The translations under genes and the position numbers were made by a program. The notes beneath the pieces are model-generated. The model worked only from the letters and a program-made list of their open reading frames with translations, did not search any database and had not been told where the DNA came from. From IMG/VR virus record IMGVR_UViG_2565956714_000007, positions 1-15,029 of that record: a stretch of 15,029 nucleotides of DNA. One strand, written 5' to 3'. How positions within the stretch are numbered: position 1 is the first letter of the stretch; every line of letters begins with the position of its first letter. Shown one piece after another: positions 520 to 15,029 of this stretch. This DNA is from a virus. Lineage: Duplodnaviria; Heunggongvirae; Uroviricota; Caudoviricetes.

Positions 520-1181
520 GCGCCTTCTCCCTGTACCTGAATCAATGTGAGATTTCCGCAGAACACTGCCCCAGTATCGATATACATCTGGTTGGCAAAT
601 TTGAGTGGTTTCACTGCTGGCGTATGACCAAAGATAAACGTGTCCGCGCCTTTAATTTCTTTAACGATCCCGTCTTGTGAGTTGCTGATTCGTTCGCGGT
701 TCCAGATTACCTGCTGATGATCAACTGGCTTTCCAAATTCGTATTCGTCACAAGGATAATCGGCGTGGCAGATGACATATTTTTTACCTTTGCTCACCAG
801 TTCGATGATTAACGGAAGTTCTTCTGCTTTATGGGCAAGAGCTTTAGCCAGAATTTCTTTGTCGTAATCGAGATTAAAGAACCAGCCACCGCCATTAAGC
901 AGCCAGTGATTAACGTTTCCACGCTCTGATAAGCCATCAATCATCATTTGCTCATGGTTTCCACGTACAGCTCTGAACCAGGGGAATGTGATTAATTCCA
1001 GGCATTCAACGTTCTCTGCACCACGATCAACCAAATCGCCCACCGAGATAAGCAGGTCTTTTTTGTTGTCGAATCCAATCGTATCCAGTTTGTTCATCAG
1101 GTTCGTGTAGCATCCGTGCTGATCGCCAACTACCCAAATATTTCGGTATTTGCTGCCATCAATTCTTTCGTAGATATTCAT
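510..1181 (-). CDS. Ser/Thr protein phosphatase, lambda PPase (orf221/NinI)-like, calcineurin-type metallophosphoesterase (223 aa)
   Basis: Metallophosphatase motifs in order: VVGDQHG, GDLVDRG, GNHE, and GHT near the C-terminus. RBS GAGG upstream of the ATG. ATGA start/stop overlap with ninG. Sits between ninG and Q as in lambda. Confidence 0.9.
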
Positions 1182-1789
1182 GCAGCCTCACTTCTGCTGT
1201 TTCGCAGTTTTTTAAGTTTCTGTTGATACTCCGCCTTGATGGTCCTGCACTCTTCGACAGTCCAGCGATGGCGGTTATGGTTTGATTCGATTTCGTCTAC
1301 TGCTTCCTGCCCGATGCGGTTAATCAGTTCGACGCGATACGGAACGAGATTTCCGCTTTTGTGCTGGTTGCACACCACGCATTGCTTGTGAATATTGCGT
1401 TCATCAAATCGGAGTTGAGGCGCCGCAGCAGTTGTCCGGTAATGCCCGGCATCCCACTGAGCAGACGTGAGCGTTCCGCACGAGATACATGGTAAGTCGC
1501 GGTCTCTTTCTCTGATGAAGGCGTTTACGGCTTGTTGGGCTTGTTTAATCCAGTAACTGCGGGGCTTTAAGGCGAGTTTTCGAATCTTAAGTTTATCTTT
1601 CTGTTTCTGCTCCTCTCGTCGTCGTTTCTTCTCTGCTGCCTTTTCCGCTTTTTCGCGTTCTTTGCTTCGTCGTTCGAGTGCTATCTTGGTTCCACACTCT
1701 GGAGAGCACCACCACTGATTGGCGAATGCAGGGTGAAACCATTCCCGACATTCATCGTTTTTACATCGTCTTCGCGCTGGTTTAGCCAT
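1178..1789 (-). CDS. ninG: NinG (Rap) recombination protein (203 aa)
   Basis: Cys-rich N-terminus ([10 protein letters not shown]...WWCSPECG), basic Lys/Glu-rich stretch and C-terminal C..C/H motifs typical of lambda NinG; same length class as lambda NinG (204 aa). Position between ninF and the phosphatase. Confidence 0.85.
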
Positions 1790-1952: not shown

Positions 1953-2131
1953 CTTGTTTTCCTCGCACGTTCTCTAAGCCACCGGATATCCCACAGGTGA
2001 GCCGTGTAGTTGAAGGTTTTTACGTCAGATTCTTTTGGGATTGGCTTGCGTTTATTTCTGGAGCGCTTCGTTGGAAGGTATTTGCAGTTTTCGCAGATGA
2101 TGTCGGTGATACTTCGTCGCTGTCGTCTCAT
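1949..2131 (-). CDS. ninE: NinE-like protein (60 aa from an internal Met of the 80-aa track ORF)
   Basis: [60 protein letters not shown]. Starting at this Met gives a 60-aa product with an ATGA overlap onto the ninB stop; the longer N-terminal extension would overlap ninB heavily. Confidence 0.65.
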
Positions 2132-2568
2132 GCCGCCCTGTCTCCCCATCGCGCTTTCCACTCCAGAGCCAGTCGCGCTTCGTCTGACCACTTAACGCCA
2201 CGCTCTGTACCGAATGCCTGTATAAGCTCTAATAGCTCCGCAAATTCGCTTACACGCATCCTGCTGGTTGACTGGCCTATTACCACAAAGCCATTCCCGG
2301 CAAGGTTAGGAACAACGTCCTGCTGCTTTAATGCTGCTGTAAAAACGCACTTCCAGCTTTCTGCATCCAGCCAGCGACCATGCCATTCAACCTGACGAGA
2401 GACGTCACCAAGGCAAGCCCAAAGCTTTCGATTCTGGTCTAAGCTGCGGTTGCGTTCCTGAATGGTTACTACGATTGGTTTGGTTGGGTCTGGAATGATT
2501 TGCTGTACTGCGTGAATAGCGTTCTGCTGATGGATGTGGCTTCTTAGTTCAAACGTTAGTTTCCTCAT
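2128..2568 (-). CDS. ninB: NinB (Orf-family recombination mediator, 146 aa)
   Basis: Length identical to lambda NinB (orf146). RBS GGAG 8 nt upstream of the ATG. Followed directly by ninE/ninF/ninG; ninC and ninD are absent. Confidence 0.85.
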
Positions 2569-3108: not shown

Positions 3109-3122
3109 ACTTCCCTCTCCCC

Positions 3123-3155
3123 CAAATAAAAAGGCCTGCGATTACCAGCAGGCCT
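3123..3155 (-). terminator. Intrinsic terminator-like hairpin downstream of ren (minus-strand sense)
   Basis: 8-bp perfect stem AGGCCTGC/GCAGGCCT (3132-3139 / 3148-3155) with an 8-nt loop, followed on the minus-strand transcript by TTTTTATTT. Confidence 0.6.
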
Positions 3156-3180
3156 GTTATTAGCTCAGTGATGTAGATGG

Positions 3181-4313: not shown

Positions 4314-4315
4314 GT

Positions 4316-5158
4316 TCACTCCTGCGCCCATGAAGGCATTTCAGTTTGTCCGTAATCTTTGGTGGCAAAGTTTTCCTGCATAGCTCGATGCTGCGGCCTC
4401 GGTTGAGATTTCCCCTTTGGAGTCTTGGGCTCAAAAATCCCCTGCCAACCACTGGCGATGCTCTGGTTTATAATTTCTTCAGGTGTATATCCCTTCTCCA
4501 GACTTCTGCTTAGAACGTTGATAGCCTGAGTGACACTTTGCTTAGACTTGATCGACTTACCTATCTCCTTGCGATAGGTAACCCACGACAACCATGTTTC
4601 TGCTGATAACCAATCAGGCAACTCTGTTTCTAGCGGGTCGAACTTCTGAGAAACTTTTTTGGGGGATATAGGGGGTTTATTAATATTTTCTTTTGTCTTT
4701 AAAGAATGTCTTTTGTGTGTCTCTAACTTCGAGACATTGAGTGTCTCTAATTTGGGGACATTTTTTGTCTCTAACTTCGAGACAAAGTTGCTAACTTGGA
4801 GACACTTGCTGAATTGCCACGCAGATACCTCACTGTTTACACCGATTTGATTTCCATCCATAAACAGGCAATTCATTGAAATCAGTTCTTTTTTAGCCTT
4901 GTTAACATTCTGCCTTGACAGTCCTGTTAACTGAGCAATTTGCTCATCGGCTATTCGATCTGTTTTCTTATTGAATCCATATGTTTTCCGGACGTAGGCC
5001 AGCATAACTTTCAACTGGCGAGCGGTTAAATCGGCACTTGCGATAGCTTCCAGCAGCTCGTTAGCGAATCTGGTGTAACCATCATCGATATCAGCCACTC
5101 TTCGCTCCTGTTCAACAGGTTCACTCTTCGGCAGGTAAAATACTTCAGCAAGGCTCAT
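4316..5158 (-). CDS. Replication initiator, lambda O-like, with ori iterons inside the coding sequence
   Basis: N-terminal region resembles the phage O N-terminal DNA-binding domain. The central part of the protein (VSNFVSKLETKNVPKLETLNVSKLET) is encoded by the DNA iterons. Start placed at an internal Met (MSLAEV...) with RBS GGAGG; the track ORF extends to 5191 and would overlap the upstream gene by 47 bp. Confidence 0.8.
   Translation of the reverse strand: MSLAEVFYLPKSEPVEQERRVADIDDGYTRFANELLEAIASADLTARQLKVMLAYVRKTYGFNKKTDRIADEQIAQLTGLSRQNVNKAKKELISMNCLFMDGNQIGVNSEVSAWQFSKCLQVSNFVSKLETKNVPKLETLNVSKLETHKRHSLKTKENINKPPISPKKVSQKFDPLETELPDWLSAETWLSWVTYRKEIGKSIKSKQSVTQAINVLSRSLEKGYTPEEIINQSIASGWQGIFEPKTPKGKSQPRPQHRAMQENFATKDYGQTEMPSWAQE
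4718..4804. repeat. Origin of replication: four ~19-bp iterons at ~24-bp spacing, followed by an AT-rich segment (4676-4716)
   Basis: tgtctctaacttcgagaca (4718-4736), tgtctctaatttggggaca (4742-4760), tgtctctaacttcgagaca (4766-4784) and a degenerate copy gttgctaacttggagaca (4787-4804). Each is an inverted repeat TGTCTC...GAGACA. Architecture matches lambda ori inside O. Confidence 0.8.
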
Positions 5159-5789
5159 TTCCAACCTCCGCATCAAAGCATTGGGCTTCAAGAGACTTAA
5201 CCATCACCACACTGCCATCTGTATTAATAACTATCGATGAGTTATATTTGCTTATCAGTTGCTTCGCGTAATCAATTCCGGCGCGAATAAGGAAATTTTT
5301 CACCGCAGGAAGATGACCAACTACACTACCCAGACCTTGCTCTATAAGCTCCTCATTAAGATCAAGCTCATTTTCATGGCGAAAAGAAATGAATGAGTCG
5401 TAAATTGCGTATTCTGCCGTCTCGCCATTTCTTTCAGGGCCAACCAGCGCCCTTATTTCATTTAGAGATTCAGAAAGATCATTATCTTCAAGCTTGAAAA
5501 ACTCTCGATTATCACTAAGCCTCTCTTTTGCAAAGGCTTTATGAATGAGTTTTTCATCTGATGCGGGATTATTTGAATGAAAGGCTGCTATCACCTTAAA
5601 TGGCTTAGGAACGCCAGTAGAGGCTGAAATTTCTTTAGCCCTAACTTCTGGTGAATGCTTAGTCATCCCAATCTTATAAATTCCTGGCATGCACTCATTC
5701 GAAAGCACATAAACAAAGCCATTTGATTTAAAATCATCTGGCACCTTCATGCTCTTCAGAACCTGGAATTTGTCATTTTCGTATGTCAT
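5145..5789 (-). CDS. GIY-YIG-like (T5orf172-type) domain protein, 214 aa; accessory gene inserted between cII and the O-like gene
   Basis: N-terminal GFVYVL...PGIYKIGMT...R..E....P...IH..F...R...REFF pattern matches the T5orf172/GIY-YIG-like nuclease fold; C-terminal ~110 aa unassigned. Strong RBS AGGAG 6 nt before the ATG. Visibly AT-rich relative to cII and O. Confidence 0.7.
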   Translation of the reverse strand: MTYENDKFQVLKSMKVPDDFKSNGFVYVLSNECMPGIYKIGMTKHSPEVRAKEISASTGVPKPFKVIAAFHSNNPASDEKLIHKAFAKERLSDNREFFKLEDNDLSESLNEIRALVGPERNGETAEYAIYDSFISFRHENELDLNEELIEQGLGSVVGHLPAVKNFLIRAGIDYAKQLISKYNSSIVINTDGSVVMVKSLEAQCFDAEVGNEPC

Positions 5790-5823
5790 AATTACTCCTG
5801 TGGATTGATCCAGTCTTTCTACA

Positions 5824-6105
5824 TCAGGCCTCGAAGAATTCGCCGTTCTTCGGGGCTTTTTCTTTTGTCAGGTAATTGGCAAGCCGCTTAGTCAGCTCAG
5901 CCATTTCATCGTCTTCGATTCCGTATTCCAGAACAGCCAGCATCATGCTTACCTGCGAGAAGAAACCATTCTTCCATCGGCTTACCTGATATTCAGGAAC
6001 CCCCATTGCTCGAGCGAATGTCTTCTGCCCCATCAGTGCCAGTTTGTTCAGCAAGGCTGACTCGATGCGAGCCGCTTTCTTGCTTTTAGTTGCAATAGTA
6101 CCCAT
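5824..6105 (-). CDS. cII: CII transcriptional activator (93 aa)
   Basis: Strong similarity to lambda CII (RIESALLNK...SRWK...MLLAVLEYG...DDEMA). RBS AAGGA upstream. Immediately downstream of nutR and cro. Confidence 0.85.
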   Translation of the reverse strand: MGTIATKSKKAARIESALLNKLALMGQKTFARAMGVPEYQVSRWKNGFFSQVSMMLAVLEYGIEDDEMAELTKRLANYLTKEKAPKNGEFFEA

Positions 6106-6112
6106 AGATAAT
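6080..6112 (+). promoter_or_regulatory. Candidate PRE-like CII-activated promoter (TTGC-N6-TTGC box plus -10 GATAAT), antisense to cII/cro and directed toward cI
   Basis: TTGC (6080-6083), ttttag, TTGC (6090-6093) on the plus strand within the first codons of cII, exactly where lambda PRE sits; GATAAT at 6107-6112 is about 17 bp beyond the -35 position. Confidence 0.55.
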
Positions 6113-6181
6113 TTCCTTAATGATTAGATAGAGTTGGCTTCGCAAAGAAACGCAAAACCATAGAGATTTGTTTCTGGTAAT

Positions 6182-6213
6182 GCCCTTTTTCAGGGCGGGG
6201 ATGTGTAAGAGCG
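6182..6213 (-). promoter_or_regulatory. nutR (boxA + boxB) N-utilisation site
   Basis: Minus-strand boxA CGCTCTTAC (6205-6213) followed by boxB hairpin GCCCTGAAAAAGGGC (6182-6196), matching lambda nutR as I recall it; between cro and cII. Confidence 0.8.
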
Positions 6214-6221
6214 TTAATAAC

Positions 6222-6452
6222 TTAAGCGGCCATTAATTCAGGCCAGATGCTTTCCCAATCAACCGGATGAAGGTCTTTGCGAGTCACTTCACCATTGCTG
6301 AACTTCTCAATCAGAACACAAAGTGCTGCGCCCAATTCATGATTACGGCTAAGTGCTTTCCTCAAATAGCCGATAGAAGTTCCGCACTTGGTGGCAAATT
6401 CTCTCTGCTCTTCCAGTGAAAGGGAGTTCAGATACAAGCGGAGTTCTTCCAT
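6222..6452 (-). CDS. cro: Cro-like HTH repressor (76 aa)
   Basis: First gene of the PR operon, divergent from cI. HTH-like segment QREFATKCGTSIGYLRKAL. RBS GGGAAGGAG upstream of the ATG. Confidence 0.7.
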   Translation of the reverse strand: MEELRLYLNSLSLEEQREFATKCGTSIGYLRKALSRNHELGAALCVLIEKFSNGEVTRKDLHPVDWESIWPELMAA

Positions 6453-6484
6453 TTGCTATCTCCTTCCCGTTGTTGAATAAGATG

Positions 6485-6554
6485 AGTTTACCTGTAGGTA
6501 AAAAGCAAATCAATACCCATAGGTTATTTACCGGCAGGTAATCAAAGATAGAAT
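6485..6554. promoter_or_regulatory. OR region: divergent PR (toward cro) and PRM (toward cI) with repressor operators
   Basis: 12-bp operators of form TACCT-NN-AGGTA: TACCTGTAGGTA (6489-6500) and TACCGGCAGGTA (6529-6540), with a degenerate palindrome between (6514-6526). PR on minus strand: -35 TTGATT (6508-6513), 17-bp spacer, -10 TAAACT (6485-6490). PRM on plus strand: -10 TAGAAT (6549-6554) placed so the transcript would start at or near the cI ATG; no SD before cI, suggesting a leaderless mRNA as in lambda. Confidence 0.65.
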
Positions 6555-6560
6555 TAAATC

Positions 6561-7247
6561 ATGGATAAATACGAACAAAGACGACTAAGGCTGATAGAGA
6601 TAAGAGACCGATTCTGTAATGGAAAGGCCTCAGAGTTGGCTCGTCGAATAGAAAGGGAACCATCATACGTTTCCAGAATGCTGTATCCGGAAGGAAAAAG
6701 CGGAAAAAAACGCATTGCTGACGATATGATGGAACTAATTGAAAAATCTTTTAATCTCCCACGCGGATGGATGGACATGCTTGCAGATGGTAAAGCTGGA
6801 GCTACGGACCATCTTGAGTTTGCGGGTAACGTTCGTGCGGGTTTTGTTCCGGTAATTGGTGAAGCCGTTTTGGGAGTTGATGGCTCAGTGGATATGATTG
6901 AATTCAGATCCGGTTGGTTAAGCATCTACAGCGGCGATAAAGATGCTTACGGTCTGAAGGTTAAGGGTGACAGCATGTGGCCAAGGATTCAGTCAGGAGA
7001 ATATGTTGTTATTGAACCAAATACGCCAGTACATCCAGGTGATGAAGTCTTTGTAAGGACCAAAGACGGTCACAACATGATAAAGATCATGAACAAAACA
7101 AGAGACGGTGATTATCAGTTTAGTAGCATAAACAGTGATCACCGCCCAATCACTCTTCCTGTTGAAGAAGTTGATAAAATGCATTTTGTTTCAGCTATTG
7201 TGAAACACACCAGGTACGTAGACCAGGACGATCTGCCAAAAGTTTGA
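6561..7247 (+). CDS. cI: CI repressor (HTH N-terminal domain plus LexA/S24-type autocleavage domain), 228 aa
   Basis: C-terminal S24 peptidase-like region (GDSMWP... with a downstream Lys). Divergent from cro across an operator region. No SD upstream. Confidence 0.9.
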   Translation: MDKYEQRRLRLIEIRDRFCNGKASELARRIEREPSYVSRMLYPEGKSGKKRIADDMMELIEKSFNLPRGWMDMLADGKAGATDHLEFAGNVRAGFVPVIGEAVLGVDGSVDMIEFRSGWLSIYSGDKDAYGLKVKGDSMWPRIQSGEYVVIEPNTPVHPGDEVFVRTKDGHNMIKIMNKTRDGDYQFSSINSDHRPITLPVEEVDKMHFVSAIVKHTRYVDQDDLPKV

Positions 7248-7261
7248 GGATAAAGCAGCAA

Positions 7262-7558
7262 ATGTTTATACCCGGCATAGTAGTCGCTGTTGTAATCATC
7301 TGCTTCATATGGGCAAAGTTATCTCCTGTAAGCTCTAAGCATACAGCTGAACTCATGAGGAAGAAGAATCTTATACATGAGGCAGAATCGATAATTAAAA
7401 AGTTCAAAGGCATGTCATACGACGACATGTCATCAGAGCAGATTGCTATGTATAAATGCGCCATTGAGCGCCTTGACTACTTAAACGGACTCAAACCCAA
7501 ACACACCCCAGTAGAATCAAAATTGCCGCAATGGCCAAGCAATCCAAATAGCTTCTGA
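7262..7558 (+). CDS. Small membrane protein co-transcribed with cI (98 aa from ATG 7262; track ORF begins at TTG 7244)
   Basis: N-terminal TM helix (FIPGIVVAVVIICFIW) then a charged soluble domain. RBS GAGGA ~11 nt before the ATG. Lies between the cI stop and the immunity terminator, the lambda rexAB position. AT-rich. Confidence 0.55.
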   Translation: MFIPGIVVAVVIICFIWAKLSPVSSKHTAELMRKKNLIHEAESIIKKFKGMSYDDMSSEQIAMYKCAIERLDYLNGLKPKHTPVESKLPQWPSNPNSF

Positions 7559-7569
7559 CATCTCCTTTC

Positions 7570-7592
7570 AGCCCGCAAAGCGGGCTTTTTTA
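7570..7592 (+). terminator. Rho-independent terminator ending the cI operon
   Basis: Stem AGCCCGC/GCGGGCT with loop AAA, followed by TTTTTTAT. Confidence 0.8.
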
Positions 7593-7655
7593 TATCAATC
7601 CAAAAAATTAATTACCTGAAAATTCAAGCAGGTAAACTCTCACATCAATTTTATT

Positions 7656-7696
7656 TACCTACAGGTATAGACATGGGTTTTACCTGTAGGTATATT
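7656..7696. promoter_or_regulatory. OL operators and PL promoter
   Basis: Operators TACCTACAGGTA (7656-7667) and TACCTGTAGGTA (7681-7692), centres 25 bp apart, same family as the OR sites. PL candidate: -35 TAGACA (7668-7673), 17-bp spacer, -10 TATATT (7691-7696). Transcript start ATCAGCAGGACGCACTGACC matches the lambda pL leader from memory. Confidence 0.65.
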
Positions 7697-7736
7697 TTAA
7701 GCCATCAGCAGGACGCACTGACCACCATGAAGGTGA

Positions 7737-7767
7737 CGCTCTTAAAAATTAAGCCCTGAAGAAGGGC
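7737..7767 (+). promoter_or_regulatory. nutL (boxA + boxB)
   Basis: boxA CGCTCTTAA (7737-7745) and boxB hairpin GCCCTGAAGAAGGGC (7753-7767), matching lambda nutL as I recall it. Confidence 0.85.
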
Positions 7768-8035
7768 AGCATTCAAAGCAGAAGGCTTTGGGGTGTGGTG
7801 AAGCCAGCTAGTCACTGGCAAGTGCTTACCTACTGTTGAGCGGTGAAGCGCTCCCAATGCTAGCAATAGCGTGGACGAGATGGGGAGCCGCGGGCGATAA
7901 GGCCGCCATAACGCGCACGTTGTCGCATGGAAAAATCGCTGGGGTGCCGGTTATACCCCTCCGAATGAGACTCAACAAGCTGGAGCTAGACTACCAGCCA
8001 CCACACCACCAAAGCTAACTGACAGGAGAATCCAG

Positions 8036-8368
8036 ATGGATGCACAAACACGCCGCCGCGAACGTCGCGCAGAGAAACAGGCTCAATGGAAAGCAGCAAA
8101 TCCCCTGTTGGTTGGGGTAAGCGCAAAACCAGTTAACCGCCCTATTCTCTCGCTGAATCGCAAACCGAAATCACGAGTAGAAAGCGCACTGAATCCGATA
8201 GACCTTACAGTGCTGGCTGAATACCACGAACAGATTGAAAGCAACCTGCAACGTATTGAACGCAAGAATCAGCGCACATGGTACAGCAAGCCACGCAGTG
8301 AAATGGGTGTGACATGCTCAGGCCGCCAGAAGCGACGCGGAAAATCAATTCCAGCTTATTACGATTGA
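8036..8368 (+). CDS. N: Antitermination protein N (110 aa)
   Basis: MDAQTRRRERRAEKQAQWKAANPLLVGV... is essentially the lambda N arginine-rich motif and body; only the C-terminal tail differs. RBS AGGAGAA upstream. Downstream of PL/nutL. Confidence 0.9.
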   Translation: MDAQTRRRERRAEKQAQWKAANPLLVGVSAKPVNRPILSLNRKPKSRVESALNPIDLTVLAEYHEQIESNLQRIERKNQRTWYSKPRSEMGVTCSGRQKRRGKSIPAYYD

Positions 8369-8376
8369 GGTGAGCC

Positions 8377-8541
8377 ATGCTCAAGAAAGTCAAACGCCGA
8401 CTTTACAAAGAAGGTAGATATTCATGCCAATTGCCAAAATGCGACACAACAAAATGGAGTGTCGATGATTGGTGTAACTGGATAGATAGATACGGAACTT
8501 GGTGGGAACGTATTTATTTTCGCGGCAAACCACTTATTTGA
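8377..8541 (+). CDS. Hypothetical small Cys/Trp-rich protein (54 aa)
   Basis: Hand-translated ORF MLKKVKRRLYKEGRYSCQLPKCDTTKWSVDDWCNWIDRYGTWWERIYFRGKPLI with RBS GAGGTG 5 nt upstream. Below the ORF-track length cutoff. Confidence 0.4.
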   Translation: MLKKVKRRLYKEGRYSCQLPKCDTTKWSVDDWCNWIDRYGTWWERIYFRGKPLI

Positions 8542-8549
8542 GGTGAGAT

Positions 8550-8801
8550 ATGGAATTTCATGAAAGTGCGATTTGTGATTTTCGCGCTAACGCAAATTCA
8601 GTAAAACCACAGCCAATTGCAGTTCTTTTTAAAACAATGGGTGCGTGGGCTGTTTTATGCTTCGCCGCTGATGACACTGACGCAAGAATGGCAATAGGCC
8701 AAGAGATGGAGATGGACCCGACAAACGATGAATTCATAATTTATGGCGCTCCATCTAATTACTTACTTGATACCTGCAACATTTACAACAAGGCTGCCTG
8801 A
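8550..8801 (+). CDS. Hypothetical protein (83 aa) in the pL operon
   Basis: ORF with RBS GAGGTGAGAT before the ATG, the same RBS context as the preceding small ORF. No recognisable motifs. Confidence 0.5.
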   Translation: MEFHESAICDFRANANSVKPQPIAVLFKTMGAWAVLCFAADDTDARMAIGQEMEMDPTNDEFIIYGAPSNYLLDTCNIYNKAA

Positions 8802-8860
8802 TGGTGGCCTTTATTTTTTAGCCGTAAATAATTTCATGCTTATTACAATCAAGGTGATAT

Positions 8861-9226
8861 ATGGAAGAACAAGCAAACAAGATTCTCGTAGAACTACTGC
8901 AAAAAGCCAGCAATGGAATAGACGCGGCTGTTTCATTTAGCCAGGCACAGATTCCTGATGTCATCCATCAGCTTTTGATGTGGCACGCCGTATCATCAGC
9001 TGGAATTCAGGCTATCTGTGTATTGGTGATTATAGCGTGTGTTTATCTGATGATTTTTGCATGGAATAAAGGAGATGATGCAGATATTGTTCTTTTATCA
9101 CTACTTGTTACATCAGGAATAGCGATTACTTCTATTGTTGTTTTCTTCAATTATTTCGACTGGCTGAAAATTTGGCTGGCCCCAAAACTTTACCTTATCG
9201 AATATGCAGCATCATTGGTTAAGTAA
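8861..9226 (+). CDS. Two-TM small membrane protein (121 aa) in the pL operon
   Basis: Two hydrophobic helices (AGIQAICVLVIIACVYLMIFAW and IVLLSLLVTSGIAITSIVVFFNYF). RBS AAGGTG before the ATG. Lies in the N-to-cIII interval where lambda carries sieB/ral-type accessory genes. Confidence 0.6.
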   Translation: MEEQANKILVELLQKASNGIDAAVSFSQAQIPDVIHQLLMWHAVSSAGIQAICVLVIIACVYLMIFAWNKGDDADIVLLSLLVTSGIAITSIVVFFNYFDWLKIWLAPKLYLIEYAASLVK

Positions 9227-9375
9227 TTTCAGGCCGCATAATCGTCCTTTATTTTTGGCATAAACAACAGAATAAACACTGCACTGTGTATTCATTCCAA
9301 CGAGTGAATACACGGAGCAATGTCGCTCGTAACTAAACAGGAGCCGACTTGTTCTGATTATTGGAAATCTTCTTT

Positions 9376-9399
9376 GCCCTCCAGTGTGAGGGCCTTTTT
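9376..9399 (+). terminator. Intrinsic terminator-like hairpin upstream of cIII (tL-type)
   Basis: GCCCTC (9376-9381), loop cagtgt, GAGGGC (9388-9393), then CTTTTTA. Expected to be read through under N antitermination. Confidence 0.55.
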
Positions 9400-9465
9400 A
9401 TATGCATACCAATAACGCTTCACTCGAGGCGTTTTCGTTATGCAATCAAATATAAGGAGTTACCC

Positions 9466-9600
9466 ATGATGCACTTTCAGCTCGCGGGTAGCGGCGTCAT
9501 GTCCGCTTTCTACCCGCACGAATCTGAATTATCACGCCGAGTTAAACAATTAATTAGAGCAGCAAAGAAACAACTGGAGGCGTTATGCGCAATGAAATAG
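9466..9600 (+). CDS. cIII: CIII-like protein (44 aa; inhibitor of FtsH-mediated CII degradation)
   Basis: MMHFQLAGSGVMSAFYPHESELSRRVKQLIRAAKKQLEAL resembles the lambda CIII amphipathic core (ESLLERITRKLR...) as I recall it. RBS AAGGAG upstream. Start placed at an internal Met of the 79-aa track ORF. Confidence 0.6.
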   Translation: MMHFQLAGSGVMSAFYPHESELSRRVKQLIRAAKKQLEALCAMK

Positions 9601-9737
9601 CCATTAATCACCAGATGCTTCGTGCGGCACAAAACAAAGCAGTAATAGCCAGATTTATTGGTGATTCAAAAATGTGGCTTGAAGCAAATAAAGCGATGAA
9701 ATCAGCTATCAACCTTCCGTGGTATCGCAGGAAATGA
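9585..9737 (+). CDS. Kil-position small protein (50 aa)
   Basis: Hand-translated ORF MRNEIAINHQMLRAAQNKAVIARFIGDSKMWLEANKAMKSAINLPWYRRK with RBS GGAGG upstream. Overlaps the cIII 3' end in another frame, as kil does in lambda. Assignment is by position and size only. Confidence 0.4.
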   Translation: MRNEIAINHQMLRAAQNKAVIARFIGDSKMWLEANKAMKSAINLPWYRRK

Positions 9738-9904
9738 GTTTTACAGATAACTGGTCAGACGAAGAATTCATTCGTCAGATGAAAGAATTAATCGGTAACG
9801 AAGGAGATATTCATGTCACTTGCAACCACAGTGAAGGAGAGCAAGTTACAGAGACGCATGTACACGCAGCAGGCGTTAATGTATCGCCAGAAGGGAGATC
9901 GTGA
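9734..9904 (+). CDS. Hypothetical acidic small protein (56 aa)
   Basis: ATG overlaps the preceding stop (ATGA). Start taken at the internal Met (MSFTDN...) of the 61-aa track ORF. No recognisable motifs. Confidence 0.4.
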   Translation: MSFTDNWSDEEFIRQMKELIGNEGDIHVTCNHSEGEQVTETHVHAAGVNVSPEGRS

Positions 9905-9991
9905 AGGTGTTCGCGTATTTTTAAATGCGGCAAAGACTGAAGTATTAAATCAGCGTTATTTCCTTGGGCCATGTCCATTCTGAGGTGAATT

Positions 9992-10699
9992 ATGGATTTG
10001 AACAAATTCGATGAGCCATTCAGCCCTGAAGATATCGAATGGCGAATACAGCAAAGCGGTAAAACACGCGATGGCAAGGTGTGGGCTATGGTGCTGGCTT
10101 ATGTCACGAACCGGGCAATCATGAAGCGCCTGGACGATGTTTGCGGCAAAGCAGGATGGCGCAATGAATACCGCGATATTCCCAACAACGGCGGAGTTGA
10201 ATGCGGCATATCAATAAAGATTGATTCCGAATGGGTAACCAAATGGGATGCTGCTGAAAACACGCAGGTAGAAGCCGTCAAAGGCGGTCGTTCCGGTGCA
10301 ATGAAGCGCGCTGCCGTTCAGTGGGGAATCGGTCGGTATCTGTATAACCTTGAGGAAGGTTTTGCACAAACATCTCTCGATAAAAAGCAGGGATGGCACA
10401 GGGCAAAACTCAAGGATGGAACAGGATTTTACTGGCTCCCTCCATCGCTGCCGGGATGGGCAATCCCAGCATCAGATAACAAACCATCACCAGAAAATAC
10501 CAACCAGAAATCTCCATCGGTTGACTGCGAACAAATCCTGAAAGACTTCAGCGATTATGCGTCAACAGAAACTGACAAGAAAAAACTCATCGAGCGTTAT
10601 CAGCGTGACTGGCAATTAATGGCTGGCAACGAGGAGGCGCAGGCTAAATGCGTTCAGGTAATGAACATCAGAGTTAACGAACTAAAACAGGCGGCATAA
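9992..10699 (+). CDS. Rad52/Rad22-family single-strand annealing protein (235 aa)
   Basis: Collinear Rad52-type pattern: ...GW...(20)...G.ECGISI...AAEN...GGRSGAMKRAAVQWGIGRYLYNL. RBS GAGGTGA upstream. Directly followed by ssb. Confidence 0.75.
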   Translation: MDLNKFDEPFSPEDIEWRIQQSGKTRDGKVWAMVLAYVTNRAIMKRLDDVCGKAGWRNEYRDIPNNGGVECGISIKIDSEWVTKWDAAENTQVEAVKGGRSGAMKRAAVQWGIGRYLYNLEEGFAQTSLDKKQGWHRAKLKDGTGFYWLPPSLPGWAIPASDNKPSPENTNQKSPSVDCEQILKDFSDYASTETDKKKLIERYQRDWQLMAGNEEAQAKCVQVMNIRVNELKQAA

Positions 10700-11173
10700 A
10701 TGGCAAGCAGAGGCGTAAATAAGGTGATCATTATTGGTCGCCTTGGGCATGATCCAGAAATCAGATATTCACCATCAGGAACGGCATTTGCAAACCTTAC
10801 CGTTGCTACGTCAGAACAATGGCGTGATAAGAAAACTGGAGAGCAAAAGGAGCAGACGGAGTGGCACCGCGTGGTAATGAGCGGGAAACTGGCAGAAATT
10901 GCCAGCGAATATCTGCGAAAAGGCTCTGAGGTTTATCTTGAAGGCAAATTGCGGACAAGAAAATGGCAGGATCAAAGCGGACAGGATCGGTTCACTACCG
11001 AAGTCATCGTGGGCGTTGGTGGAACCATGCAAATGCTTGGTGGCAAGCAAGGAGGCAATGAACAGTCTTCACCTCAGCGAAATAATGGTCAGCAACAAAG
11101 ACAGCAACCTCAGCAGCAGGGAAATCACAGCGAACCACCTATAAACTTCGACGATTCGGATATTCCGTTCTAG
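10700..11173 (+). CDS. ssb: Single-stranded DNA-binding protein (157 aa)
   Basis: OB-fold N-terminal region ([17 protein letters not shown]...WHRVV), Gly/Gln-rich linker and acidic C-terminal tip DDSDIPF. Confidence 0.9.
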
Positions 11174-11182
11174 GAGCTGAAT

Positions 11183-11662
11183 ATGAAAATCTGCTCAAGA
11201 TGCCATCAACCGAAGGAAGAAAGGGACTTTCAAATCAGAAGAGCATCCAGAGATGGATTAACTGCCGCTTGCCGGGCTTGCCTGGCTGAATATGACAAAG
11301 AGCGCGCGGGATTGCCACATCGAGTATCAGCAAGGAGAGAATATCAATCATCGGAACGCGGCAGAGAACGGTGTAACGCAGCCAAAAAGCGGTTCATTCA
11401 GAGCAACCCATGGAAAAGAAAAGCCCACATCATCGTGGGTAATTTTTTGCGCGACGGTAAGCTAATCCGACCACCACAATGTGAGTGCTGCGGATCAGAA
11501 TGTAAACCACAGGCGCACCACTGCGACTACAGCAAACCAACCGATGTGATGTGGCTCTGCAAGTCATGTCATGTCGAGTGGCACAAACATAACAAACCTA
11601 TCTACCCAGACGAGGAGCCAGTAACTCTCCCCTTCCCTCGTCACGCTATTCACGCAATTTAA
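11183..11662 (+). CDS. HNH endonuclease-like zinc-binding protein (159 aa)
   Basis: N-terminal CxxC...CxxC zinc ribbon. C-terminal HNH-type motif CECCGSECKPQAHHCDYSKP...WLCKSCHVEWHKH. RBS AGGAG upstream. Confidence 0.7.
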   Translation: MKICSRCHQPKEERDFQIRRASRDGLTAACRACLAEYDKERAGLPHRVSARREYQSSERGRERCNAAKKRFIQSNPWKRKAHIIVGNFLRDGKLIRPPQCECCGSECKPQAHHCDYSKPTDVMWLCKSCHVEWHKHNKPIYPDEEPVTLPFPRHAIHAI

Positions 11663-11670
11663 GGACTTAC

Positions 11671-12219
11671 ATGAATCACTTGATGGTTGACCTTGAAACA
11701 ATGGGCAACGGGCCATACGCGCCAGTTATTTCTATTGGGGCGGTATTCTTTGACCCGAATACCGGAGAAACAGGAGAAGAGTTCTCGGTAAATATCTCGC
11801 TTGAATCATCAATGCGATATCGAGCGCGTCCTGACGCTTCAACGATTTTATGGTGGCTGGAACAGAGTGAAGAAGCCAGGAAATCGCTAACCAGCAACAC
11901 TCAGGAGCTTTCAACGGCTCTTTCATGGTTATCTGAATTCATCATAAAGAACGCTAACCACAAATTCGTTCAGGTTTGGGGGAATGGAGCATCATTTGAC
12001 TGCGTTATTCTCCGCAACAGTTATTCGCTGACAGGGCAGCCAGTTCCGTGGCAGTGGTGGAATGACCGCGACGTAAGAACAATCGTCGAACTTGGGAAGG
12101 CAATAGGATTCGACCCTAAGCGAGATATGCCATTCAAAGGAACTCGCCACAACGCTCTTGATGATGCCATTCACCAAGCCAAATACGTTTCAGCGATCTG
12201 GAAAAAGTTAGCTAAATAA
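11671..12219 (+). CDS. DnaQ-like DEDDh 3'-5' exonuclease (182 aa)
   Basis: Exo I motif MVDLETMG, Exo II motif GNGASFDCVIL and Exo III motif HNALDDAIHQAKY, in order. RBS AAGGA upstream. Confidence 0.8.
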   Translation: MNHLMVDLETMGNGPYAPVISIGAVFFDPNTGETGEEFSVNISLESSMRYRARPDASTILWWLEQSEEARKSLTSNTQELSTALSWLSEFIIKNANHKFVQVWGNGASFDCVILRNSYSLTGQPVPWQWWNDRDVRTIVELGKAIGFDPKRDMPFKGTRHNALDDAIHQAKYVSAIWKKLAK

Positions 12220-12235
12220 TCAACAGGAGAAAACC

Positions 12236-12532
12236 ATGCCAGCGCCTCTGTATGGTGCGGATGACCCGCGCCGCTGTTCCGGCAATTCCGTATCGGAGGT
12301 GCTGGATAAATTCAGAAAAAACTACGACCTGATAATGTCTCTACCGCAGGAAACGAAAGAGGAAAAGGAATTTCGCCACTGTATATGGCTTGCAGAGAAA
12401 GAAGAACGCGAGCGAATTTACCAGACATCAATCCGACCATTCCGCAAAGCCACATATACCCACTTCCCTGAATATATCGACCCGCGCCTGCGTAATTACC
12501 GCTCACGCTATGGCGCTATCAGTAATGACTGA
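12236..12532 (+). CDS. Hypothetical protein (98 aa)
   Basis: ORF with RBS AGGAGA before the ATG. No recognisable motifs. Confidence 0.5.
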
Positions 12533-12542
12533 GGAATTTACC

Positions 12543-12710
12543 ATGAGAGGACTTGCATACAATCCCGGCATTCTTCCGGCAGAAATGATTATTCGCCAAC
12601 GCGTAAAGCCAATGCCATCGAGAGAGGAATTGCTTAAGAGAAAGAGTTTCGGTTCTGTTAATGACAACAAATATCTGAATGCGATGTTGCGCAAAGGAGG
12701 CAACCGGTGA
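12543..12710 (+). CDS. Hypothetical protein (55 aa; internal start of the 106-aa track ORF)
   Basis: ATG preceded by RBS GAGGAA. The upstream part of the track ORF overlaps the 98-aa gene in another frame and lacks an RBS. Confidence 0.4.
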
Positions 12711-12840
12711 CTGGACATGCAGCGATCCTCGACATGTGCTGTGGCAGTCGCATGTTCTGGTTAGATAAGAATGACGAACGGGCGAGATAAGCGATCGGTT
12801 AAGTGCTATAGTAATGCGCTTTTGTATTTATGGAGTGAAT

Positions 12841-13539
12841 ATGAAAAATATCCTACTGGCATCATTGTTAGTGGCATCGCCGGGTGCATTTGCAGCCAGC
12901 TTTGACTGCCAAAAGGCTTCGACAGCAATCGAACATAAAATCTGCGATAACGAACGTCTGTCAAAATTAGACGAACAGCTTAGCTCTGCCTATTCTAGTG
13001 CCCTCAAAGAAAACCCAGAGAACGCAGACACCATAAAAATGGTTCAACGTCAGTGGGTAAATATGCGTGGAAAACTCACTGATAATAAGGCTCTGGAGCT
13101 GGCTTATCTTATCCAAATTAATGGCCTCAAAGGTTTGGGGAGTTCAGTCAGCGTAACAGCGGCCAATGAGATACCCACGTCGACGCAGAAACATTCTGAA
13201 GAGCAGGAAGAAACAAGTAAGGCAGAAGTTAAGTCGGTCAAGAACGGCAATAAGCTAACCTTAGAGTCATTCCGAGCTAAATATGTAGAAGTAGATGGTG
13301 AGTATTACAGCACGACATCCATTCCTAGAGGCAGTTCGTTCTTGTTCACTTGCGCCAGTCGTATTGCTGATGACCAAGTGAATGTTTGGAAGAAACATGC
13401 AGCCAAAGAGGGCAAAATCGACCTATTCTTTGAGGTTGAGAATCACTTACACACTGCTATGTTGAACGCCAATTTCCAGAAGTTGAATTCAGACCCTGCC
13501 AAAAGAGGTATTTGTAATCTGATTAACGCAGTGCCGTAA
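12841..13539 (+). CDS. Secreted DUF1311 (LprI N-terminal-like) domain protein, 232 aa with signal peptide
   Basis: Signal peptide MKNILLASLLVASPGAFA. DUF1311-like motif FDCQKASTAIEHKICDNERLSKLDEQLSSAY...QRQWV. RBS GGAGTG before the ATG. Start taken at M10 of the track ORF. Followed by a hairpin. Confidence 0.7.
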   Translation: MKNILLASLLVASPGAFAASFDCQKASTAIEHKICDNERLSKLDEQLSSAYSSALKENPENADTIKMVQRQWVNMRGKLTDNKALELAYLIQINGLKGLGSSVSVTAANEIPTSTQKHSEEQEETSKAEVKSVKNGNKLTLESFRAKYVEVDGEYYSTTSIPRGSSFLFTCASRIADDQVNVWKKHAAKEGKIDLFFEVENHLHTAMLNANFQKLNSDPAKRGICNLINAVP

Positions 13540-13549
13540 GTAAATTTAG

Positions 13550-13580
13550 GGCCACAGTTGTGGCCTTAAATATTTTTTCA
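13550..13580 (+). terminator. Terminator-like hairpin after the secreted-protein gene
   Basis: GGCCAC (13550-13555), loop AGTT, GTGGCC (13560-13565); the T-run TATTTTTT begins ~9 nt later, so this is a weaker terminator. Confidence 0.4.
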
Positions 13581-13745
13581 GCCTTTTCTTATTTGTAATA
13601 AGCAGTACTTAGTAGTGCTTATAAAACAGAATAAAAAACATATGACTTTGGCGATTACCCAGTAAAGATATTCGAAATAAATGTAAATATCGGCAATGAA
13701 TAACAATCCTCGCACTCGCGGGGATTTCTTTTATATGGGGATAAT

Positions 13746-14546
13746 ATGACCATCCACTTTCACGGCAGCCCAATATGGGGGGATGAGCATGCCCCTACAG
13801 ATATGCTGATTAAAGCCCTTTACCGTGATGGTGGGGCTTTTGTTTCATTTGCCAGACCAGAGCAGATGAAAAAGATTGCCATGTTCCCTTGTGATATACG
13901 CCTTGATAACGGTGCTTTTAGCGACTGGATGAAAGCATTAAAGAAAGGCACTCCGGTAGACTGGAGTAAGAGACGAGCAAAATTCTACGACTTTGTTGGG
14001 AAGTGGTTCAGCAGAATTGAATGGTTTCTTATACCTGACGTTATCGAAGGGACAGAGGCAGAAAACGACGAGCAGATTGAGTTGGTTCCTGATTGGCTAA
14101 AATCAAAAGCGGTTCCGGTCTGGCATACCGACGAATCAATTGAACGTCTTTTACGCCTTTCTAGCAAATTTGAATGGGTGGCGATTGGATACTGCGGACC
14201 ACACAGGCACATACGCTCTAAATGGTGGGAACAGAGAATGGATGAAGTTTTCACTGAGCTTTATATCAATCGTAATTTGAAAGTGAAAATTCATGGTCTT
14301 CGAATGCTCGACGTGAGAGTTCTTGGTATGTATCCGTTCGCCAGTGCGGATTCTACTAATGTTGCTGTTAACGTACCGAAGACAGAGAAGCGATTTCCTG
14401 AGATTACCGACAAACTGGCACGCACAGCTGTACTTCGCGCTGCTATTGAAAAGGTGCACCCGCCATCGATATCAGCATGGGTAGACAGAAAGATGAGAGA
14501 GCCGGCGCAAGCCGGTTTTTTATTTGAATTCACCGACGCCGCTTAA
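13746..14546 (+). CDS. Candidate TGT-superfamily (DpdA-like) transglycosylase, 266 aa; standalone accessory gene
   Basis: Collinear resemblance to the TGT catalytic motifs: LDNGAF (cf. DSGGFQ), FLIPDVIEG (cf. IFDEC), WVAIGYCG (cf. YAVGGLAVG), KIHGL (cf. MGVG), FASADSTNV (cf. FDCVMPTRN). No C-terminal Cys/His zinc site. Own AT-rich upstream region with a 25-bp palindrome and a downstream terminator. Family call is from by-eye motif matching only. Confidence 0.45.
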   Translation: MTIHFHGSPIWGDEHAPTDMLIKALYRDGGAFVSFARPEQMKKIAMFPCDIRLDNGAFSDWMKALKKGTPVDWSKRRAKFYDFVGKWFSRIEWFLIPDVIEGTEAENDEQIELVPDWLKSKAVPVWHTDESIERLLRLSSKFEWVAIGYCGPHRHIRSKWWEQRMDEVFTELYINRNLKVKIHGLRMLDVRVLGMYPFASADSTNVAVNVPKTEKRFPEITDKLARTAVLRAAIEKVHPPSISAWVDRKMREPAQAGFLFEFTDAA

Positions 14547-14565
14547 TGCGGATTTCTTTTATCTG

Positions 14566-14590
14566 AACTCGCTACGGCGAGTTTTGTTTT
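14566..14590 (+). terminator. Rho-independent terminator after the 266-aa gene
   Basis: AACTCGC (14566-14572), loop TACG, GCGAGTT (14577-14583), followed by TTTTGTTTT. Confidence 0.7.
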
Positions 14591-14603
14591 ATGGAGATGA
14601 TAA

Positions 14604-14771
14604 ATGCACTTCCGAGTAACAGGTGAATGGAATGGAGAACCATTCAACAGAGTTATCGAAGCAGAGAACATCAACGACTGCTATGACCACTGGATGCTGT
14701 GGGCGCAGATGGCACATGCAGACGTAACCAATATTCGAATTGAAGAACTGAAAGAACACCAAGCCGCCTGA
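14604..14771 (+). CDS. Hypothetical small protein (55 aa)
   Basis: Hand-translated ORF MHFRVTGEWNGEPFNRVIEAENINDCYDHWMLWAQMAHADVTNIRIEELKEHQAA with RBS GGAG before the ATG; ends inside a terminator hairpin. Confidence 0.4.
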   Translation: MHFRVTGEWNGEPFNRVIEAENINDCYDHWMLWAQMAHADVTNIRIEELKEHQAA

Positions 14772-14784
14772 TGGCGGTTTTTTA
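14764..14784 (+). terminator. Rho-independent terminator upstream of xis
   Basis: CCGCC/GGCGG stem with loop TGAT, followed by TTTTTTATT. Confidence 0.7.
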
Positions 14785-14828
14785 TTGCCTGATTTGCAGG
14801 TTCGATTCCCTATTCGGAGATAGCACTC

Positions 14829-15029
14829 ATGCAACACGAACTACAACCTGATTCACTGGTTGATTTGAAATTCATCATGGCTGATACTGGCTTCGGTAAA
14901 ACCTTCATCTACGACCGGATTAAGTCCGGCGACCTGCCAAAAGCCAAAGTTATCCACGGGCGAGCAAGATGGTTATATCGTGACCATTGTGAATTCAAAA
15001 ATAAGCTCTTAAGCCGCGCCAATGGGTAA
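14829..15029 (+). CDS. xis: Excisionase-type small DNA-binding protein (66 aa); integrase expected just beyond the window
   Basis: Small basic protein with a winged-helix-like segment (FIMADTGFGKTFIYDRIKSGDLPKAKVIHGRARW). Sits at the end of the leftward operon where xis precedes int. RBS GGAGA upstream. Stop at the window edge. Confidence 0.65.
   Translation: MQHELQPDSLVDLKFIMADTGFGKTFIYDRIKSGDLPKAKVIHGRARWLYRDHCEFKNKLLSRANG

Follow-up and report, generated by a model that had tools for sequence, protein, structure and literature searches.

[quoted passage not shown]

The stretch of DNA analysed here (the window; 15,029 nucleotides, positions 1 to 15,029 of IMG/VR record IMGVR_UViG_2565956714_000007, from a Caudoviricetes virus) encodes a compact Rec module in its early-left region, where the gene order is cI-like, N, cIII, kil, Rec module, and xis (Table 1). 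Four open reading frames, for a single-strand annealing protein (SAP), an SSB, an HNH-like protein, and a DEDDh exonuclease, lie exactly where the initial annotation placed them, all on the plus strand. A fifth gene, abc2, begins directly past the end of that annotation, which stopped one gene short. The gaps in this run (annealase/SSB/HNH/exonuclease/abc2) are 0, 9, 8, and 16 nucleotides, and neither promoter-like nor terminator-like sites are in excess across positions 9300-13000. Together, the short gaps and the lack of such an excess argue for one operon. A moron arrangement, in which cassettes bring their own promoter or terminator, was rejected on the same count of sites.

Table 1. Features of the window, with coordinates, strand, and basis of assignment
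Feature	Coordinates	Strand	Basis or remarks
NinG/Rap-family protein	1178..1789	-	PF05766 E 8e-91; nin region
NinB/Orf recombination mediator	2128..2568	-	PF05772 E 3.6e-54; nin region
N	8036..8368		
cIII-like	9361..9600		
kil	9585..9737		
Two small overlapping ORFs (9719-9904 and 9813-9983)	9719..9983	+	Homologous to Sf6 gp30/gp29
Rec module	9992..12532		
Single-strand annealing protein (SAP)	9992..10699	+	PF04098 E 5e-26; phrog_1097 E 3.5e-130
Phage SSB, OB fold	10700..11173	+	PF00436 E 3e-38; TIGR00621
HNH cassette	11155..11616	+	Alignment to HNH-less phages; replacement SSB tip (last ~6 codons and TAG), RBS, HNH core
HNH-like protein, 159 aa	11183..11662	+	N-terminal CxxC...CxxC zinc ribbon, helical linker, putative C-terminal CxxC-HH-(D)-CxxCH-H His-Me (HNH-like) finger
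Conserved 45-bp tail, encoding PVTLPFPRHAIHAI and stop	11617..11662	+	Alignment to HNH-less phages
Exonuclease cassette (ORF 11671-12219, 182 aa, predicted DexA/Rv2179c-type DEDDh 3'-5' exonuclease)	11663..12223	+	PF16473 E 7e-74
Abc2 anti-RecBCD protein, Pro68 included	12236..12532	+	PF11043 E 4e-63
xis-like	from 14829		

Contiguous SAP, SSB, nuclease, and anti-RecBCD genes in the early-left region, between kil/cIII and int, are the arrangement of a lambdoid Rec module. Judged from its sequence context, the module is in the lambda red/gam slot of the N-antiterminated early-left operon. This agrees with the original proposal that it stands where lambda has gam-bet-exo, as does the outcome of profile searches: among 30 window ORFs scanned, none matched lambda Exo (YqaJ), RecE, or Gam. 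The pair that marks a lambda Red-type module, a phage 5'-3' exonuclease and Gam, was not found. NinB/Orf, in the nin region, gives this phage a further recombination function, distinct from the module.

Profile searches place three of the four proteins first reported here, the annealase, the SSB, and the exonuclease, above their family cut-offs; the HNH-like protein has no Pfam HNH match, and all four family guesses stand. The SAP, described initially as a Rad52-family annealing protein, matches Rad52_Rad22 (PF04098) with 91.9 bits (cut-off 20.3), residues 4-136 covering profile positions 7-153 of 153. These residues form an N-terminal Rad52-fold domain. The C-terminal domain (residues 157-235, nucleotides 10460-10696) is instead 63% identical to P22 Erf residues 134-205 (E 7e-30), a Rad52-type/Erf domain swap reported previously (PMC2629481). 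Sequence search found no solved homologue of the SAP. Searches with the C-terminal domain alone, aimed at linkage to Abc2, returned only fragments or 17 representatives. The two small ORFs just upstream share the position of Sf6p30/p29 and match phrog_2123 (E 5e-40) and phrog_1723 (E 4.5e-34), two families that carry the label "recombinase"; neither ORF is homologous to P22 Arf. By sequence they may be accessory genes.

The SSB is the phage's own, as first suggested: it scores 130.5 bits against PF00436 (cut-off 26) and 180 bits against TIGR00621 (cut-off 54). Like bacterial-type SSBs, it ends in a free canonical acidic tip, FDDSDIPF followed by the stop codon.

The exonuclease matches PF16473 over its full length with 247.8 bits (cut-off 27). 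Among 36 homologues, D7, D110, H160, and D165 never vary and E9 is kept in at least 90%, giving the D, E, D, H, D set of a DEDDh enzyme. The DnaQ-type assignment holds at the family level. From family membership the polarity would be 3'-5'. The best solved relative is T4 DexA (8kel/8ken, E 1.5e-13), which, like M. tuberculosis Rv2179c, shares the Pfam family and the conserved DEDDh residues. Identity to DexA is only about 30%, however; DexA is longer (227 residues), and its tetramer residue D90 falls in a gap of the alignment. The family is represented in 1858 phage records, including T-even dexA. The window gene has a dN/dS of 0.10, which indicates purifying selection. Two identities were considered and rejected. 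The protein is not the reported anti-T4 "EcD" (PMC12153337), whose cloning primers give the start MIDTET and the end TIPETYD; no exonuclease homologue has these ends. Nor is it assigned to a defence system, the PADLOC DEDDh match being weak, sub-threshold, and with no stretch that passes on its own.

The HNH assignment is the least secure of the four families. Across 55 sequences, C100, C103, H112, H113, H130, and H134 are invariant, and C4, C7, C30, C33, and C126 near-invariant (C126 at least 90% conserved). These residues include the catalytic His and Cys4 zinc ligands expected of HNH/His-Me finger endonucleases; the canonical Asn is not identifiable, and Asp/Glu is found in that region. The initial description as an HNH zinc-finger endonuclease has in its favour the conserved ligands and a confident AF2 model (pLDDT 94), but it lacks a Pfam HNH match: a search of the protein and 54 homologues against the curated HNH profiles (PF01844 and relatives) gave no match up to E = 1. 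A profile of the protein found nothing among PDB sequences, and Foldseek of the model against the PDB gave nothing significant (best, Cap5, probability 0.44). The gene is under purifying selection (dN/dS 0.06). Homologues at 37-50% identity lie directly 3' of an SSB-type gene ending in DIPF in Erf, Rad52, and Sak4 modules, and fusion and deletion derivatives are common.

Abc2 changes the interpretation of the module. The window protein scores 210 bits against PF11043 (cut-off 25), matches PDB 8b1t at E 1.8e-57, and is 94% identical to the P22 Abc2 of that structure (8B1T), with P68 present. According to the published model, Abc2 attaches to RecC and thereby makes host RecBCD the resection enzyme of the phage; phages that encode Abc2-like proteins have no exonuclease, which the co-opted RecBCD provides (PMC9836394). 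At this identity the window Abc2 would be expected to bind RecC and modify RecBCD in the same way, and host RecBCD so re-programmed most likely would resect DNA for the annealase. The initial annotation considered the gene set mechanistically unexplained: an annealase without a 5'-3' exonuclease. That puzzle is removed because Abc2 is encoded immediately downstream.

P22 has the order cIII-kil-arf-erf-abc1-abc2; the window has cIII-kil-(small ORFs)-SAP-SSB-HNH-exonuclease-abc2. Abc2 with its Pro68, the Erf C-terminal domain, the cIII and kil flanks, and the lack of a phage 5'-3' exonuclease are common to both. The window differs in having a Rad52-type annealing domain instead of an Erf-type one, and SSB, HNH, and exonuclease in the abc1 position; no Arf or Abc1 homologue was found in the window. 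With lambda Red (exo-bet-gam) the module shares the genomic slot and the general task, recombination by single-strand annealing with RecBCD neutralised. Unlike Red, which blocks RecBCD, it would outsource resection to the Abc2-modified enzyme.

The window module is a known, already catalogued P22/Sf6-like lambdoid type. A 2025 survey of lambdoid Rec modules (Genome Res; PMC12315714) defines an ES18 functional type, anti-RecBCD plus SSB plus nuclease plus SAP, in 25/314 phages; it explicitly lists DnaQ-like and HNH nucleases and treats nucleases as recombination components. The 2008 epsilon34 genome paper describes the same arrangement (PMC2629481). Examples are epsilon34 (SAP-SSB-DnaQ-like-Abc2) and Sf6/ES18 (SAP-SSB-HNH-Abc2). 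The window shares with these phages the early-left position, the gene order, and the sequence families of SAP, SSB, HNH, exonuclease, and Abc2; over shared parts, DNA identity is 96-98% to Sf6 and mEp235 and about 90% to epsilon34. The difference from the ES18-type panel is that the window has both nuclease cassettes at once. In that panel only three phages are named as having two genes for a single function, and in none of them are these HNH plus DnaQ-like (PMC12315714). Phage CurroJimenez_Bas106 has the identical five-gene layout, annotated, at 98.2% identity. With the arrangement published and a near-identical copy annotated, the nuclease set is not the unusual one that it first seemed.

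Both nuclease genes lie in cassettes with clean boundaries at the ssb/abc2 boundary. Relative to Sf6, the exonuclease cassette is a clean insertion: window positions 11662 and 12224 correspond to positions 3171 and 3173 of the Sf6 locus (L003). The HNH cassette lies within the 3' end of ssb and includes a replacement SSB tip; when the window is aligned to ECP1 and mEp235, similarity is lost at 11154/11043 and returns at 11617/11618. What follows is the 45-bp tail, which in the window forms the end of the HNH ORF and in HNH-less phages encodes a 15-residue extension of SSB past DIPF, the ssb/tail junction there reading GATTTTGACGACGATATACCCTTTGCACCAGTAACTCTCC. The SSB tip haplotype tracks HNH: HNH-carrying modules have FDDSDIPF and stop, and HNH-less modules have DFDDDIPF plus the tail. 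HNH presence always goes with the free canonical tip, and the extended form is found in about 79% of related modules. The HNH-less allele is not a simple deletion of HNH, since the preceding ~27 bp of ssb differ, including a one-codon insertion. It is doubtful that the tail is a conserved functional peptide, as homologous DNA at another locus (L219) is read in a different frame. In the AF2 prediction of the HNH protein the tail residues have low pLDDT (55-76).

All four combinations of the two cassettes occur. Among named phages, ECP1 has neither nuclease, Sf6 HNH only, mEp235 exonuclease only, and Bas106, like the window, both. Of 99 IMG/VR contigs, all with the tail, 7 carry both, 14 HNH only, 32 exonuclease only, and 46 neither (Fisher p = 0.62); Abc2 is present in 90/99 and a Rad52-like SAP in 92/99. 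In 5426 E. coli genomes, by counts that are not phylogeny-corrected, HNH occurs in 98, the exonuclease in 152, the tail in 408, and the HNH-exonuclease junction in 36, where about 36.5 would be expected for independence. The layout with both nucleases was found in 36/5426 genomes and 7/99 viral contigs. At most 58% of the window is covered by any one E. coli genome. HNH is found in about 21-24% of otherwise near-identical modules. The two nuclease genes assort independently, so they appear from these distributions to be separate optional cassettes, not a functional pair or a co-adapted machine.

These results make it probable that positions 9992-12532 are a P22/Sf6-type Rec module, transcribed from pL under N antitermination, with annealase, SSB, and Abc2 as its core and the nucleases as optional extras. 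According to the published P22 model, Abc2 would bind RecC, and RecBCD would unwind DNA and degrade the 5' strand from the DNA end without responding to Chi, with the phage annealase, not RecA, receiving the 3' single strand. Annealase and SSB would then pair complementary strands, a step established only for annealases in general. (Even in P22, Erf loading by Abc2-RecBCD "remains to be tested experimentally"; PMC9836394.) The terminally redundant genome would thereby be circularised and recombination-dependent replication supported, with a phage 5'-3' exonuclease unneeded.

The contrary view, that the nucleases belong to the machinery, comes in several forms. The most elaborate makes the four genes one co-adapted machine: HNH breaks the DNA, resection by the DEDDh enzyme runs in reversed polarity, and the annealase uses 5' overhangs. 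Tight packing in one operon and purifying selection on both nucleases fit this scheme, which is nonetheless disfavoured and very improbable given Abc2 immediately downstream (and in nine-tenths of the related modules), the independent assortment of HNH and exonuclease, the 46 modules that lack both, and an exonuclease family widespread without any annealase. A T4-like homing engine, in which HNH homes, a DexA-like exonuclease trims the broken 3' ends, and annealase plus SSB finish gene conversion, has a precedent: the 3'-5' activity of DexA contributes to I-TevI intron homing in T4 (PMC12153337). HNH and exonuclease also adjoin in the window, and the ssb tip haplotypes differ with HNH. The scheme links the two nucleases, however, and the genomes do not: observed co-occurrence equals that expected, HNH is kept on its own in Sf6-type phages, and the exonuclease is kept on its own in epsilon34/mEp235-type phages. 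We consider it improbable. A further form is a recruited nuclease: the free SSB tip brings in HNH, which nicks or cuts DNA and so creates entry sites for Abc2-RecBCD. The position 3' of genes ending in DIPF, kept across three module types despite diverged sequence, the strong purifying selection, and the free tip whenever HNH is present all favour this, and the 2025 survey takes the same view (PMC12315714). Against it, HNH is missing from most otherwise near-identical modules and is commonly deleted or fused, and the target sequence next to the gene is a variant that comes with the cassette, as is typical of free-standing homing genes; we regard this role for HNH as unlikely. On balance we lean slightly towards a family of site-specific, homing-type endonucleases that reside at the 3' ends of ssb genes in phages; the replacement SSB tip within the cassette, the tip haplotypes that differ with HNH, and the fusion and deletion derivatives speak for this. 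As in free-standing HNH homing genes of phages (T4 MobE, for example), the gene is small, optional between near-identical flanks, and next to a highly conserved target gene; carriers have a variant target sequence, and decayed copies exist. The window protein differs from these in its lack of a Pfam HNH match, and its linkage to ssb could reflect function. A functional SSB-HNH partnership explains the position after SSB-type genes equally well.

The exonuclease raises the converse issue, whether it has anything to do with recombination. It may instead be a DexA-like scavenger or degrader of host DNA, or an EcD-like discriminator of modified DNA, housed in a permissive insertion site. A ~60%-identical subfamily adjoins xis/int, a dATP/dGTP pyrophosphohydrolase, and DndB, with no SAP, SSB, or Abc2 recognised by the reference set within 4 kb; members of the family abound in virulent phages; DexA has a role in scavenging host DNA and nucleotides, and the E. 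coli EcD claim comes from the same report (PMC12153337); and 3'-5' exonucleases usually inhibit recombination (PMC12315714). Against this, the close subfamily (identity of 75% or more) occupies the Rec slot, between ssb and abc2, at 26/28 viral loci; the pL operon is repressed in lysogens, contrary to prophage-borne defence; the PADLOC match is sub-threshold; and EcD is a different protein. A purpose wholly outside recombination is somewhat unlikely. The role we favour, at rather less than even odds, is the trimming of 3' tails or flaps from recombination intermediates, with the exonuclease perhaps recruited through SSB, much as DexA does in T4 homing; nucleotide scavenging is likely to be its other use. 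The Rec-slot placement of the close subfamily and the strong purifying selection on both nucleases also count against the preferred reading of an SAP-SSB-Abc2 core: because of the former for the exonuclease, and the latter for both, either nuclease could be a genuine recombination component.

As a discovery the module matters little: catalogues already include its type, a published phage has an annotated copy that is nearly identical, and the paradox is gone once Abc2 is included. The 2025 survey itself calls a 3'-5' DEDDh exonuclease within an annealase module curious (PMC12315714). The natural variants with and without each nuclease are ready-made isogenic material for recombineering tests.

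A further idea, distinctly unlikely, is that the HNH proteins are homing endonucleases whose special target is the acidic-tip DNA, the most conserved part of phage ssb genes, so that gain or loss of HNH would switch SSB between two forms: one with a free DIPF carboxyl terminus, and one with the tip buried under a 15-residue extension. If so, the switch could alter which host or phage partners are recruited (ExoI-like nucleases, the annealase, SSB-sensing defence systems), and where the DexA-like exonuclease also is present, the phage would carry a self-contained kit for cut-trim-anneal gene conversion. Two alternative SSB carboxyl termini that track HNH could matter for the biology of SSB partners, and for the choice of SSAP-SSB pairs in recombineering.

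Profile searches of its ORFs give the window a typical lambdoid arrangement (table). The four ORFs of the recombination (Rec) module lie exactly where the initial annotation placed them, and its family assignments are beyond doubt for three: the single-strand annealing protein (SAP; Rad52_Rad22, 91.9 bits against a cut-off of 20.3), the single-strand binding protein (SSB profile, 130.5 bits; TIGR00621, 180 bits), and the exonuclease (Rv2179c-like DEDDh, 247.8 bits). The HNH identification is less secure. The module does stand in for lambda Red, as had been proposed.

Features of the window
Feature	Coordinates	Strand	Remarks
Early-right operon		-	cro-like, cII, T5orf172 protein, O, DnaC-like loader, NinB, NinG, phosphatase, Q
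NinG/Rap homologue	1178-1789	-	nin region
NinB/Orf homologue	2128-2568	-	nin region
T5orf172/MUG113-domain gene	5145-5789	-	between cII and O replication gene
Early-left operon	from about 6561	+	cI-like repressor, N, cIII-like, kil, then module genes
SAP	9992-10699	+	Rad52-like
SSB	10700-11173	+
Segments bearing on SSB extension	11100-11173; 11617-11662
HNH	11183-11662	+
Tail	11617-11662		45 bp
Exonuclease cassette	11663-12223		clean insertion between preceding stop codon and abc2 RBS
Exonuclease	11671-12219	+	DEDDh
Abc2	12236-12532		98 codons; begins sixteen bases past exonuclease stop
LprI-domain gene	12814-13539	+	lysozyme-inhibitor domain, signal peptide; lower-GC stretch of early-left operon
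266-aa protein	13746-14546	+	xis/TorI-like gene just downstream

Several other features deserve mention. Beyond the Rec module, the NinB/Orf and NinG/Rap homologues provide the phage with additional recombination functions. The T5orf172/MUG113-domain gene, in place of which an E. coli locus (L002) has merely a 162-nt ORF, may be another optional insert, and the LprI-domain gene looks like a moron. The 266-aa protein matches phrog_887, 'queuine tRNA-ribosyltransferase' (E 1e-101), with no match in Pfam and NCBIfam scans; it is a candidate DpdA-like DNA-modification enzyme. At megablast level, any one complete E. coli genome accounts for at most 58% of the 15-kb window, yet nearly all segments find 96-99% matches somewhere, a patchwork that is the typical lambdoid mosaic.

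The module had been called unusual, but its type is already known. The 2.5-kb region matches phage CurroJimenez_Bas106, in which all five module genes are annotated, over its full length at 98.2% identity; partial matches to it turn up in 224 phage records and in 1107 of the 5426 complete E. coli genomes. A survey from 2025, covering 325 lambdoid phages, describes the Rec module as a combination of SSB, nuclease, SAP, and anti-RecBCD functions, recognises four nuclease types that include DnaQ-like 3'-5' and HNH nucleases, and cautions that HNH genes appear mobile (PMC12315714). The present module belongs to the survey's ES18 functional type, which comprises all four functions and accounts for 25 of 314 phages (PMC12315714). 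Its sole peculiarity relative to that type is the presence of both nuclease genes together: the three phages named there as having one function represented by two genes do not include this HNH and DnaQ-like pair (PMC12315714).

Nor is the module mechanistically unexplained. The initial annotation held that annealases normally partner with 5'-3' exonucleases, and overlooked the adjacent abc2 gene (PF11043, E 4e-63; PDB 8b1t, E 1.8e-57), whose product is 94% identical to P22 Abc2 and retains Pro68. P22 itself encodes no exonuclease; according to the published model, Abc2 bound to RecC makes RecBCD act as if constitutively Chi-activated, feeding single strand to the phage annealase (PMC9836394). 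The authors see in this the reason why an exonuclease is absent from phages with Abc2-like proteins (PMC9836394). Moreover, the SAP carboxyl-terminal domain is 63% identical to that of P22 Erf over 79 residues (E 7e-30), a Rad52-fold/Erf domain swap already reported for epsilon34 in 2008 (PMC2629481), and the layout parallels the P22 order cIII-kil-arf-erf-abc1-abc2. Arf and Abc1 homologues are absent from the window. The annealase thus has its 5'-3' partner, most likely host RecBCD in the Abc2-modified form.

The two nucleases are optional, independently assorting cassettes. Alignments reveal all four states among related phages: SAP-SSB-Abc2 with no nuclease (ECP1), with HNH (Sf6), with exonuclease (mEp235), and with both (the window). 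Of the complete E. coli genomes, 98 contain HNH, 152 the exonuclease, and 408 the 45-bp tail; 36 have the junction between HNH and exonuclease, against about 36.5 expected under independence. Among 99 IMG/VR contigs with the tail, 7 carry both, 14 HNH only, 32 exonuclease only, and 46 neither (Fisher p = 0.62), around a core of Abc2 (90/99) and Rad52-like SAP (92/99). There is thus no hint of linkage in these counts, which are uncorrected for phylogeny. Promoter-like and terminator-like sites are not in excess around the cassettes, so these are not independent transcription units.

Alignment to HNH-less phages places the HNH cassette inside the 3' end of ssb rather than between genes. SSB ends in MDFDDDIPF-APVTLPFPRHAIHAI in HNH-less phages, and in FDDSDIPF in the window and Sf6, where the HNH ORF reads into the tail common to HNH-less phages. 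The tail is no part of the HNH family: its confidence in the predicted structure is low, and HNH homologues elsewhere stop near NKPIY. At locus L219, homologous DNA is read in another frame, and thus the tail appears to be conserved as DNA, not peptide. In the related modules compared (loci L003, L004, L006, L007-L125), about 79%, those without HNH, have an SSB that runs on past the canonical DIPF tip with a conserved 15-residue extension, APVTLPFPRHAIHAI.

Across 119 viral loci, ssb-tip haplotypes follow HNH presence or absence with one exception: MDFDDDIPF in 75 of 95 HNH-less alleles; FDDSDIPF in 21 of 24 HNH-bearing alleles, set apart by one additional codon and several synonymous changes; and MNFDDEIPF in both classes (two alleles with HNH, one without). 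The cassette thus comes with a replacement SSB tip of its own, and interconversion by simple deletion is excluded. The pattern is that of a homing endonuclease of the free-standing kind whose target has an immune variant. Possibly, instead, HNH has a real SSB-linked function: homologues only 37-50% identical still lie directly 3' of a gene ending in DIPF in Erf, Rad52, and Sak4 modules, and purifying selection is strong (dN/dS 0.06, one diverged pair). (The HNH ORF is intact, and unannotated by RefSeq/PGAP, in all E. coli matches listed, H46-H53, and in L002; selection was measured in viral contigs.) Fusion ORFs, some joining SSB to HNH and others HNH to the exonuclease, point to decay of the locus by deletion; the former probably link the 159-aa HNH protein and the 157-aa SSB, which fall in one 90%-identity cluster (proteins concerned in clustering and fusions: P0016/P0017, P0070, P0073, P0083, P0114, P0121, P0122).

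Among solved structures, T4 DexA is the nearest to the exonuclease (8kel/8ken, E 1.5e-13; what distinguishes the sequences of the two entries is S87 and D90, the mutant of PMC12153337). The DEDDh residues D7, E9, D110, H160, and D165 are kept, dN/dS is about 0.10, indicating purifying selection, and the family occurs in 1858 phage records, T-even dexA among them. Of 28 viral loci with homologues at least 75% identical, 26 have the gene in the Rec slot. A subfamily about 60% identical instead adjoins xis/int, with dATP/dGTP pyrophosphohydrolase, DndB, DUF2303, and YfdP; no SAP, SSB, or Abc2 was recognised within 4 kb, the reference set lacking Bet and RecT. In Salmonella and Klebsiella prophages (L126-L132), such a gene directly follows a PF04447 dATP/dGTP pyrophosphohydrolase or DndB-domain gene and precedes xis/int, a context that hints at nucleotide pools or DNA modification. 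The published anti-T4 exonuclease EcD is a different protein, and PADLOC did not support a role in defence. T4 DexA is documented both to scavenge host DNA and to carry out 3'-5' processing in recombination-dependent intron homing (PMC12153337). By this analogy, trimming of 3' ends or flaps of annealing intermediates is favoured, with nucleotide scavenging a strong alternative.

For a module of known type, the remaining interest lies in the role of this DexA-like exonuclease and in the switch between ssb tip and HNH.
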